A DNA stretch of 64,000 nt. It comes from a plasmid. A program made the position numbers. Positions 18,001 to 19,681 of the stretch are shown one piece after another (within the stretch, counting starts at the first letter, position 1; every line of letters begins with the position of its first letter). The stretch is from assembly GCF_056746865.1 (NCBI RefSeq), contig NZ_JBWKMP010000004.1. One strand, written 5' to 3'.

Positions 18001-19681
18001 TCAGGGTACAGTGTGGCGACTTCATGGAATGGCAGCCGGTGCAGTATTACAGCCGGATCATTATGAATCCGCCGTTCAGTCACGGGCAGGATATCCGGCA
18101 TATCCTGCGGGCTTTTTCCCTGTTGCGTCCGGGGGGCGTTCTGGTTGCCGTCTGTCTCAACGGGCCACGCCAGCAGGAGAAGCTGTTACCGTTTTCTGAC
18201 GTCCGCGAGGAGCTGCCGCGCGGCACGTTTGCTTATACCGATGTCCCGACGATGATTATTCGTTTGCGTGCCTGATGACACAGGGCTGGCGGGAGGATAA
18301 ATGCCCGTCTGTCCGCGCCGGGAAAAAACCGCGCGCCGGTGGCGCTGAAAGGGGCCGCGCTCACGCGCCGCCCCTTTCATTACGCGGACGTTCTGATGGG
18401 GGCTTCTGTCTTTTCAGACCTGTCATTTGTCTGTTACTGATGATGTTGTTGTTCCTGCTACTGCTACTGCTACTGCTACTGCTACTGCTACTGCTACTGC
18501 TACTGCTACTGCTACTGTTCTTCTTTTTTCTACTGCCCTGATTATTGTCTGTTTTGTTGTTCTCCTGCTTATGCCTTTTCCGGGCGTCCCCCTGGCGGGG
18601 CGGGCTGTCGTGAACGGAGCCAGCGAAGCTGTCTCCGCCCTGGCGGGCTTCCATCCCTGACGCAAAAACCCGGGTTTGCAGCGACCGGAACGGTCGCGCC
18701 ACCCTTGTCGCGCCGTGGCCTGCGCTCCCGGCATCCCGGCAAAAGACGCCGGGATGTAAGGAGCAACGCCGTTTCGCAAACCGCGCTTCACGTCGTTGCG
18801 GCGGGTCCCTGCCCGTTGTTCTGTCCGGTGCCATTCACCTGTTTAAGCCCCTGTCGCCGGGGGCATAGACAGCCACAACCTGCCGCACTGACTGTCCAGG
18901 GTAAATGAACAGCCCACAAAATTTTTTACCCAAAACCCGGTAAAAAATTTTGCGTTCTGCCCAGGACAGGTGCGTCAGGCCGTGGCAGTGATGCCCCTTG
19001 CGGCGAAGGTTCTCAAACAGGTGATGGTGAATACCGGAGGGAACAAAAGGCAGGTCCCCGCAAAACGTCAAAACCGCGGCTCCCGAAACTCAACAGATGA
19101 TGGGGGCTGAAAACATCAACAGAAGGAGACACATCATGGCAGTTCGTGGCATTAACAAGGTCATTCTTGTCGGTCGTCTGGGAAAAGATCCGGAAGTCCG
19201 TTACATCCCCAACGGGGGCGCAGTGGCAAACCTGCAGGTGGCCACGTCAGAAACCTGGCGCGACAAACAGACGGGGGAAATGAAGGAGCAGACGGAATGG
19301 CACCGCGTGGTGCTGTTCGGCAAGCTCGCGGAAGTGGCAGGTGAATATCTGCGTAAGGGGGCGCAGGTCTACATTGAAGGCCAGCTTCGCACCCGTAGCT
19401 GGGAAGATAACGGTATTACCCGTTACGTCACCGAAATCCTTGTTAAAACCACGGGCACCATGCAGATGCTGGGGAGTGCACCACAGCAGAACGCTCAGGT
19501 GCAACCGCAGCCTCAGCAGAATGGTCAGTCACAGAGTGCTGACGCGACGAAAAAAGGGAGCGCGAAAACGAAAGGCCGTGGACGTAAGGCTGCGCAGCCG
19601 GAGCCTCAGCCGCAACCACCGGAGGGGGAGGATTACGGGTTTTCAGACGATATCCCGTTCTGACTGGCCTGACTGTGATAA

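Follow-up and report, generated by a model that had tools for sequence, protein, structure and literature searches.

A variable tandem repeat at the 5′ edge of Frpo-like promoter repeats corresponds to the plasmid typing loci VNTR-37 and STTR10pl

Tandem tracts beside three Frpo-like repeats

The window, a 64,000-nucleotide stretch of a plasmid contig (NZ_JBWKMP010000004.1), carries three Frpo-like repeats (Table 1); a scan of genome contigs with the Frpo core returned only three loci. Copy 2 lies between a methyltransferase gene and the plasmid ssb, and copy 3 lies 5′ of a ygeA-like gene; in the F plasmid, Frpo2 is located upstream of ssb and Frpo1 upstream of ygeA/ygeB (PMC9849209). Copy 1 is followed by a downstream module that is unrelated to those of the other copies. 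An earlier note on this DNA had described a microsatellite, prone to slippage, that borders each repeat on its 5′ side, and this description is correct. The array counted there as (CTGCTA)10 in copy 2 has 10.5 units, the two 18-bp units reported for copy 3 were found again as 2.3 units, and the version called degenerate in copy 1 is indeed T-rich and weakly repetitive. The 586-bp identity that the note had seen downstream of the tracts of copies 2 and 3 is exact. The copy-1 tract and the flank of the copy-2 tract share 84% identity over 49 nt.

Table 1 Features of the window that bear on the tandem tracts (strand "." marks features without a strand)
Feature	Position	Strand	Basis
Degenerate T-rich tract of copy 1, with (GTT)3 at 15156-15164	about 15130-15200	.	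Weakly repetitive
Frpo-like repeat, copy 1	15353-15790	-	89% identity to copy 2 over 442 nt
Class I SAM-dependent methyltransferase, upstream gene	17712-18275	+	ORF; PGAP on the identical gene in L001 and L009
Site homologous to VNTR-37 forward primer	18367-18393	+	2 mismatches
T-rich, A-poor simple-sequence zone enclosing the copy-2 VNTR	18404-18579	.	Pyrimidine fraction 0.69-0.78
"yddA"-type ORF, 77 aa, TTG start, (Ala-Thr)n, spanning the tract	18427-18660	+	ORF list
(CTGCTA)10.5 hexanucleotide VNTR, copy 2	18455-18517	.	TRF score 126, 100% matches
Site homologous to VNTR-37 reverse primer	18532-18568	-	3 mismatches
Frpo2-type (class 1) ssDNA promoter repeat, copy 2, 5′ of ssb	18533-19118	-	586-bp identity with 24009-24594; fold
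Plasmid ssb, first gene driven by copy 2	19137-19663	+	ORF/annotation
18-bp tandem repeat x2.3, 5′ edge of copy 3	23970-24010	.	TRF, 100% matches
Frpo1-type ssDNA promoter repeat, copy 3, 5′ of the ygeA-like gene at 24610	24009-24594	-	586-bp identity

The copy-2 array, 63 nt long, has a perfect period of 6 both by Tandem Repeats Finder and in the raw sequence; such an array cannot have arisen by chance in 64 kb. The 18-bp repeat of copy 3 is likewise visible by both. The zone that encloses the copy-2 array shows a three-base periodicity of T (44/7/19 when counted by phase) and contains the further sub-repeats (ATG)2 and (GTT)3, which vary between plasmids from one to two ATG units and from (GTT)3 to (GTT)5. 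When the 80-nt windows of the 64 kb were ranked by pyrimidine content, the tract zones of all three copies took ranks 1, 2, 5, 7 and 9, with a peak of up to 0.775 against a window mean of 0.476 (sd 0.07). All F-like copies examined had a T-rich, A-poor zone at the corresponding place; the base composition over 149 tract instances was 47% T, 26% C, 16% G and 11% A. It is this composition that tracts of different plasmids and paralogs have in common, with the sequence motif differing: at the same position, R100 and pO157 carry CTGCTA, F carries TTC/TTCCTC, and pSLT carries CCTGTT, while the motif is GTT in copy 1, as (GTT)9 in R100, and an 18-mer in copy 3.

Upstream of the tract are the stop codon of the preceding gene and a GC-rich hairpin, and downstream of it lies a strongly structured region. 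An Rfam search matched no family at the tract. Within 18200-19200, a sigma-70 promoter scan gave no promoter-like site and did not locate the Frpo -35/-10 elements, and a terminator scan gave nothing informative at the tract. The tract does not accompany class-1 promoters wherever they occur: in the IncK2/Z plasmid L132, the Frpo-like copy upstream of ssb lacks it, and at the second copy the T-rich sequence is no longer than about 40 nt and contains no repeats. Insertion elements of the IS66 family abut or interrupt the tract at at least four sites. Group II introns were considered as the source of the foreign sequence abutting some tracts and rejected, because these elements encode IS66-family transposases and end in ...CGCTTAC; the Rfam intron model had no match there.

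Variation between plasmids and correspondence to typing loci

The hypervariability proposed in the earlier note was borne out by comparison of unit numbers across plasmids. In the copy-2 context, the 44 instances had 1-10 or 17 units with no preferred number; R100 has 9 units at this position, and NZ_CP148278, whose flanks are otherwise identical to the window, has 17. Among the matches listed, which are the best 60 of roughly 4,600 PLSDB records, every full-coverage match to a complete plasmid showed a length difference from the window in whole steps of 6 bp. Across the three contexts, 137 of 142 tract instances fell into the same mod-3 length class. The tract of copy 3 was 77 nt long in 34 instances and 95 nt long in 27, and since these forms are 18 nt apart, they represent one or two 18-bp units. 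Overall, tract length ranged about sixfold, and the allele distribution was broad rather than bimodal.

The earlier note knew of no description of this repeat, which was wrong: the copy-2 VNTR is the IncFII/R100 ortholog of VNTR-37, a locus used for multilocus VNTR analysis (MLVA) of pO157. We took the VNTR-37 primer sequences from PMC3321953, where those of the PulseNet E. coli O157 scheme (Hyytia-Trees et al.) are tabulated. Both primers match exactly in the pO157-like L006 (forward, 7085-7111; reverse, 7250-7286), around a (TGCTAC)10.3 array, and the homologous sites in the window bracket the copy-2 array; a second copy of the reverse-primer site occurs in the window at 24008-24044, with 2 mismatches. 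The 6-bp unit TGCTAC is a rotation of CTGCTA, the gene order from methyltransferase to ssb is the same in both plasmids, and the repeat number varies in both: VNTR-37 ranged from 3 to 17 repeats in 202 O157 strains, with 11 alleles and a diversity index of 0.82 (PMC3321953). The two loci differ in the host plasmid, pO157 there and an R100-like IncFII plasmid here, and by a few substitutions in the flanks. They differ also in how they have been viewed, as the MLVA literature uses VNTR-37 purely as a typing marker "inside ORF L7083"; we found in that literature no link of VNTR-37 to an ssDNA promoter. The primer of another pO157 locus, VNTR-36, was absent from all loci fetched, and VNTR-36 is therefore not another Frpo-edge tract within the regions sampled.

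The Salmonella Typhimurium locus STTR10pl, on pSLT, is a positional homolog of the copy-2 VNTR. The STTR10pl primer sequences match exactly in the pSLT-like L010, at 2438-2458 and 2769-2790, and between these sites lies (CCTGTT)7.2 (2631-2673), directly 5′ of the ssb Frpo-like region, with ssb downstream at 3303. The published position of STTR10pl is between PSLT064 and ssbB (PMC6459517), and it is among the more variable loci of its MLVA scheme (PMC2725892). Like the copy-2 VNTR, it has a 6-bp unit and is intergenic, immediately upstream of an Frpo-like element of ssb; it differs in its motif (CCTGTT instead of CTGCTA), in its diverged flanks and in the upstream gene, which encodes a DNA polymerase III theta homolog instead of a methyltransferase.

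The repeat has also been reported from the same plasmid backbone family. A 2018 study of F33 plasmids described "6-bp repeats in yddA" with 6-9 units in 24 plasmids, and near-identical plasmids differed solely in this repeat and a 9-bp repeat in traD (PMC6052338). The unit given, GCTACT, is again a rotation of CTGCTA; there, however, it was published as within-ORF variation, and its function and promoter context were not discussed. Thus, the repeat and its hypervariability are already known, both from the MLVA markers VNTR-37 and STTR10pl and from IncFII plasmid comparisons. What is new is minor: in the leading region, each of these plasmid-borne VNTR loci is found at the 5′ edge of a class-1 ssDNA promoter.

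Promoter fold and reading frames at the tract

The strand that folds is the minus strand of the window, which we infer to be the transferred strand. For copy 2, its predicted DNA fold has a free energy of -185.9 kcal/mol (z = -9.9) and forms a hairpin of roughly 530 nt; the tract is predicted to lie unpaired on the 3′ side of this hairpin, outside the promoter stem-loop. Varying the repeat number n from 0 to 30 left 93-100% of the predicted hairpin unchanged and shifted the minimum free energy, about 185 kcal/mol in magnitude, by less than 10 kcal/mol, in thermodynamic models of naked DNA that ignore SSB, RNA polymerase and helicases. None of these predicted folds contained stable pairs between tract and hairpin. 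Deletion in silico of the whole T-rich zone (18396-18560) kept 214 of the 214 hairpin pairs. The suggestion of the earlier note that the tract modulates promoter folding or strength thus finds no support here; as explanations, both modulation of the fold and a role as a fold insulator were rejected on these in silico results. The tract directly abuts the repeat that carries the Frpo or class-1 promoter (Masai and Arai 1997; PMC9849209; PMC12672017), but it lies outside the folded domain and is dispensable for the predicted fold. We found no mention of the tract in the Frpo promoter literature searched, nor, in the literature searched, any measurement of expression or transfer at different n.

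The "yddA"-type ORF that spans the tract is open, but nothing about it points to a gene. In its frame, the synonymous fraction of the variants was 0.21 (11 synonymous and 42 non-synonymous), lower than in either of the other plus-strand frames, and the variants were distributed over the codon positions as 26/16/14. None of the six frames showed coding constraint, with synonymous fractions of 0.21-0.34 for plus-strand and 0.24-0.25 for minus-strand frames; among the controls, ssb gave 0.76 (35 against 11; codon positions 6/5/35), the methylase 0.46 and the ygeA-like gene 0.38. It is accordingly very improbable that the tract encodes a repeat within a small hydrophobic protein (yddA in pHN7A8, L7083 in pO157), in which an (Ala-Thr)n or poly-Leu stretch would vary in frame. 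Consistent with such a protein are length changes that are always divisible by 3, the recurrence of T at each third position, which yields hydrophobic codons, and a yddA frame that stays open through the tract in most of 130 (E. coli-type) instances, with the C-terminal part ...PFPGVPLAGRAVVNGASEAVSALAGFHP in common. This openness is, however, expected from A-poor composition together with slippage in steps of 3n, and T-rich, A-poor sequence is open in several frames through composition alone. Moreover, the frame is not maintained in pSLT, where all three plus-strand frames stop 4-11 codons past the repeat. The start codons are TTG or GTG without a Shine-Dalgarno motif, none being found in the 25 nt upstream of TTG 18427 or ATG 23918; copy 1 has its unrelated downstream module; and PGAP annotates the region inconsistently between records, calling conflicting ORFs on either strand or none.

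Origin and possible roles of the tract

We consider it likely that the tract is a non-coding, neutral, slippage-driven VNTR within a T-rich spacer; both the slippage and the neutrality are what we infer. A T-rich, triplet-periodic spacer would form the 5′ boundary of each class-1 (Frpo-type) repeat in F-like plasmids and probably belonged to the ancestral repeat unit. Replication slippage would then have expanded and contracted a different motif, of a length divisible by three, in every paralog and every lineage of plasmids, and the repeat number would drift essentially neutrally. On the transferred strand, the tract would be an unpaired purine-rich tail outside the promoter hairpin, and we propose that, for this reason, neither the folding nor the strength of the promoter depends on tract length. 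It is not obvious how neutrality alone would explain that the T-rich zone persists in every F-like copy examined, and in a short version even in IncK2/Z. Also, the units that are all multiples of 3 and the T at every third base could reflect a coding relic or some other constraint.

Alternatively, the zone could be a functional spacer in which composition and not sequence is under selection, and which provides an unstructured purine-rich tail 3′ of the hairpin on the transferred strand. Complementary-strand synthesis and a 3′-to-5′ helicase such as UvrD would reach the hairpin from the side of this tail. The tail might offer a zone for loading or approach, or SSB might bind poorly to it, and its length could tune the time during which the promoter is single-stranded and active. 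The composition kept across paralogs and lineages despite different motifs, the outlying pyrimidine content of the tract zones in the window and the unpaired position of the tract are all consistent with this idea, as is a 2026 preprint according to which leading-region hairpins of F delay conversion and UvrD resolves them (10.64898/2026.01.09.698686), although the element studied there is another one (ssp2) and the tract is not mentioned. We nevertheless regard the idea as unlikely, given IncK2/Z class-1 promoters with little or no tract, natural plasmids in which IS66 insertions have come between the tract and the sequence upstream of it, and a length that spans about sixfold without a preferred value. 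Its extension to a timer, in which VNTR length would tune the conversion of hairpin to duplex and hence the duration of leading anti-defence and SOS-inhibition gene expression after transfer, seems to us less probable still.

We give very little credence to the contingency locus raised by the earlier note, in which a change in repeat number would act as a switch or fine adjustment of the strength of the neighbouring ssDNA promoter, or of the expression of leading genes downstream. A hypermutable repeat does adjoin a promoter here, and the tract shares with the simple-sequence contingency loci of Haemophilus and Neisseria that it consists of hypermutable short tandem repeats changed by slippage. 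In those loci, however, the repeat sits in a reading frame, with a frame-shifting unit, or between promoter elements and so switches expression on and off, whereas the unit of the present tract, being 6 nt, never shifts the frame, belongs to no demonstrable gene, and lies outside the promoter structure and not between promoter hexamers. In addition, the predicted structure is insensitive to n, and the alleles are broad and not bimodal, as is also the case in PMC3321953. Equally doubtful is a transcriptional insulator, in which the pyrimidine-rich untranslated RNA would act as a Rho-utilisation site that blocks read-through from upstream, so that the leading genes would depend on the ssDNA promoter only. 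The excess of C over G in most motifs (CTGCTA, TTCCTC, CCTGTT) and in the overall composition would suit such a site, and so would the location of the tract after an upstream stop codon and GC-rich hairpin and before a strongly structured region; yet the (GTT)n of copy 1 has no C at all, the IncK2/Z copies lack the tract, and the basis of the idea is composition only. Two further candidates were rejected. H-DNA fails as a general explanation, as the F tract is homopyrimidine and CTGCTA is not. The primase DnaG recognises CTG; here CTG is on the non-transferred strand, and priming by DnaG was set aside by this reasoning alone.

The neutral VNTR that we favor would leave the modest added value of a unifying annotation, in which the typing loci and the paralogous repeats at other Frpo copies occupy one position. 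None of the ORFs annotated across the tracts (yddA, L7083 and PGAP "hypothetical" or "pilus" proteins) bears the marks of a gene. The repeat and its hypervariability have served MLVA typing of plasmids for about twenty years, and the finding as it stands matters little. If tract length did affect the duration of zygotic induction, for which the present analyses give no support, a routine epidemiological marker would be linked to plasmid establishment. Were the timer true, a heritable, fast-evolving establishment timer would lie inside two routine MLVA typing loci.

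The tract and its promoter repeats

The sequence described here belongs to the leading region of an R100-like IncFII plasmid, its promoter repeat being matched 100% by R100. The F plasmid has Frpo2 ahead of ssb and Frpo1 ahead of ygeA (PMC9849209); by this gene order, copy 2 is the counterpart of Frpo2 and copy 3 that of Frpo1.

Features of the leading region in the window (TRF, Tandem Repeats Finder output)
Feature	Position	Strand	Remarks
Copy-1 tract	~15130-15200		T-rich, weakly repetitive; (GTT)3 at 15156-15164
Class I SAM methyltransferase gene	17712-18275	+	first in gene order, then copy-2 tract
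Copy-2 tract, (CTGCTA)10.5	18455-18517		TRF score 126, 100% matches
ssb	19137	+	follows the Frpo-type repeat after copy-2 tract
ParB-like gene, psiB, psiA, hok		+	after ssb, before second tract and repeat
Copy-3 tract, 18-bp unit x2.3	23970-24010		TRF, 100% matches
ygeA-like gene	24610	+	after second tract and repeat; DUF932 gene next
traJ 5' UTR and FinP	27530-27639

TRF confirmed the tandem arrays that the earlier note had placed at the edges of copies 2 and 3, and the 586 bp that it thought identical in these copies are exactly so (18533-19118 and 24009-24594). Since the two F repeats are reported to be 92% identical (PMC9849209), the 100% identity in the window suggests that gene conversion may have occurred recently in this plasmid lineage. 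Between copies 1 and 2 the identity is 89% over 442 nt, and copy 1 also has a short homologous stretch in common with the sequence left of the copy-2 tract. The copy-1 tract is degenerate, as noted before, and T-rich, but not simply non-repeated: R100 has (GTT)9 (L009, ~3490-3520) against (GTT)3 in the window, so that this tract, too, is a VNTR in some plasmids.

When all 80-nt windows of the 64 kb were ranked by pyrimidine content, the three tract zones took ranks 1, 2, 5, 7 and 9, with fractions up to 0.775 (mean 0.476, sd 0.07); two other strongly pyrimidine-rich windows, at 43181-43260 (0.75) and 13703-13782 (0.725), adjoin none of the three copies. At the tract position, F carries (TTCCTCTTC)n and a pSLT-like Salmonella plasmid (CCTGTT)7.2. 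What the lineages have in common is composition (T 47%, C 26%, G 16%, A 11% over 149 instances).

Three side observations concern the surrounding genes. The ParB-like gene, single (652 aa) in F and pO157-like plasmids, appears split in the window into 20015-21436 (473 aa) and 21463-22038 (191 aa), which could reflect a frameshift or pseudogene. An Rfam match to AS-pc01 ('Antisense to pHK01_035'; 15926-16027, minus strand, 89.7 bits against a gathering score of 79) lies just downstream of the copy-1 repeat, antisense to the start of the next operon, and a metagenome contig (L034) has a comparable match. In NZ_CP051665 (6433-8187), ygeA/ygeB-type genes come straight after the methyltransferase gene and the ssb-parB-psiB-psiA-hok block is absent, the outcome that would be expected from Frpo2 x Frpo1 recombination.

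Length variation at known typing loci

Megablast of 18280-18700 (421 bp) against 72,556 plasmids matched 4,606 records. Among the matches listed, those with near-identical flanks had spans stepping by 6 bp (463, 415, 409, 403, 397, 391), and some full-length matches fell off these steps through 1-bp indels elsewhere in the query. Many matched plasmids contained only its left or right half, with the break at the tract. With 18395-18575 as query, all full-coverage matches listed differed from the window by multiples of 6 bp (n = 2-10, where n is the number of CTGCTA units); R100 has n = 9, and a plasmid with identical flanks n = 17. The 149 instances, drawn from plasmid loci and 120 metagenome contigs with a conserved 38-mer that closely follows the tract, represent three contexts: methylase to ssb (CTGCTA, n = 1-10 or 17), F-type (TTC/TTCCTC arrays of 14 different lengths), and hok to ygeA (the 18-mer once or twice). 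Of 142 instances, 137 had tract lengths of the same mod-3 class. The hypervariability noted before is real.

It is also already well known, contrary to the impression that the tract was undescribed. The STTR10pl locus of Salmonella Typhimurium MLVA is its positional homolog. The primer sequences that we take to be those of STTR10pl match the pSLT-like plasmid exactly (L010, 2438-2458 and 2769-2790), flanking the sole tandem repeat of the intergenic region. STTR10pl is located between PSLT064 and ssbB (PMC6459517) and is among the more variable loci (PMC2725892). Primer sites identify the window tract itself with VNTR-37 of the PulseNet E. coli O157 MLVA scheme: the primers (PMC3321953) match a pO157-like plasmid (L006) exactly, flanking (TGCTAC)10.3, and the window at 18367-18393 with 2 mismatches and 18532-18568 with 3. 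Across 202 strains this 6-bp repeat on pO157, listed as "inside ORF L7083", ranged from 3 to 17 units, with 11 alleles and a diversity index of 0.82 (PMC3321953). Wang et al. counted 6-9 units in 24 plasmids, some of them identical save for this repeat and one in traD (PMC6052338). Since the Frpo literature consulted, including PMC9849209, does not mention the tract, the connection of these VNTR loci with ssDNA promoter edges appears not to have been made before.

A second known IncF plasmid VNTR, the perfect 9-bp repeat (AACAGCCGC) x11.9 at 53956-54062, lies presumably within traD, whose repeat has 4-13 copies in F33 plasmids (PMC6052338) and 5-19 in pSLT (PMC6459517).

Reading frames and predicted fold

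Every repeat unit is a multiple of 3, T recurs at every third base (phase counts 44/7/19, 18420-18570), and the yddA frame is open across the tract in most instances, with a common C-terminal part. Among 56 variant sites in the 66 nt that follow the tract, however, 53 could be scored in this frame and only 11 were synonymous against 42 non-synonymous, a fraction of 0.21, below those of both other plus-strand frames; minus-strand frames gave 0.24-0.25, and all 56 variants split 26/16/14 by codon position. By the same procedure, ssb scored 0.76 (positions 6/5/35), the methylase 0.46 and the ygeA-like gene 0.38. No Shine-Dalgarno motif precedes the starts of the tract ORFs, which are TTG or GTG; in pSLT, each of the three plus-strand frames meets a stop 4-11 codons past the repeat. 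PGAP annotation conflicts by record (a minus-strand hypothetical or "pilus protein", plus-strand hypotheticals, or none). From this variant pattern, the weak translation signals, the lack of ORF conservation and the erratic annotation, we rejected yddA and L7083 as genes and conclude that ORFs across the tract are, as judged from sequence, spurious annotations. A-poor sequence is open in several frames from composition alone; for the period of three, the best explanation is a degenerate simple sequence of trinucleotide type that slips continually. Another PGAP 'hypothetical protein' of 207 nt (WP_000547974 and relatives; window 18905-19110, L001 2167-2373), wholly within the Frpo hairpin immediately before ssb, is probably spurious as well.

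In F transfer the leading genes point towards oriT and the transferred strand is their template, a direction from which the transferred strand would here be the window minus strand. Folded as ssDNA from 19140 to 18380, it gave a long predicted hairpin (-185.9 kcal/mol, z = -9.9, ~19090-18560) with the (TAGCAG)n tract essentially unpaired just 3' of it. Rebuilding the tract with n = 0, 1, 3, 6, 10, 17 and 30 gave predicted minimum free energies of -184 to -194 kcal/mol and a hairpin 93-100% identical throughout, the tract contributing 2-bp mini-hairpins only. In a 1-kb context, 180 of the 214 isolated-hairpin pairs were kept in the wild type, and all 214 after deletion of the whole T-rich zone (18396-18560). 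Thus, neither the proposed modulation of promoter folding by repeat number nor a "fold insulator" role, which we rejected, is supported in silico.

Of the Frpo-like copies in an IncK2/Z plasmid, the one upstream of ssb has no tract, and another has only ~40 nt of T-rich sequence without repeats. IS66-family elements abut or split the tract at at least four different points in natural contigs (L034/L119, L054, L093/L110, L066); the element at L093 1203-2816 codes for a transposase of 537 aa, and the element ends are ...CGCTTAC or ...CCGGTTAC. The insertions suggest that the spacer is a tolerated or preferred IS66-family target. Together with the IncK2/Z copies, they indicate that the tract is not obligatory in class-1 ssDNA promoters.

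Origin and meaning of the tract

We consider it probable that the tract is a non-coding simple-sequence spacer belonging to the ancestral Frpo repeat unit, in which replication slippage would have expanded a different 3n motif in each paralog and lineage, its length drifting essentially neutrally. The broad allele spectrum, the lack of a preferred n, dispensability in related plasmids and the absence of structural coupling favour this account. The persistence of a T-rich, A-poor zone at this site is left unexplained by pure neutrality. It could point to a functional spacer with a role at the promoter hairpin, and the modelled geometry offers one such possibility: on the transferred strand, the tract would flank the hairpin as single-stranded DNA on its 3' side, which, speculatively, is where synthesis of the complementary strand and a 3'-to-5' helicase such as UvrD would approach it. 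We nevertheless regard such a role as unlikely, and its specific form, in which length acts as a timer, as decidedly improbable. A contingency locus has very little to commend it: nothing computable supports a function of repeat length in promoter strength or contingency, the predicted hairpin being insensitive to n. We give scant credence to a coding repeat, and a Rho insulator is highly improbable.

The new points are modest. VNTR-37, STTR10pl and the paralogous repeats are unified by their position at the 5' edge of class-1 ssDNA promoters, and across all of them there is evidence for spurious ORF annotation.
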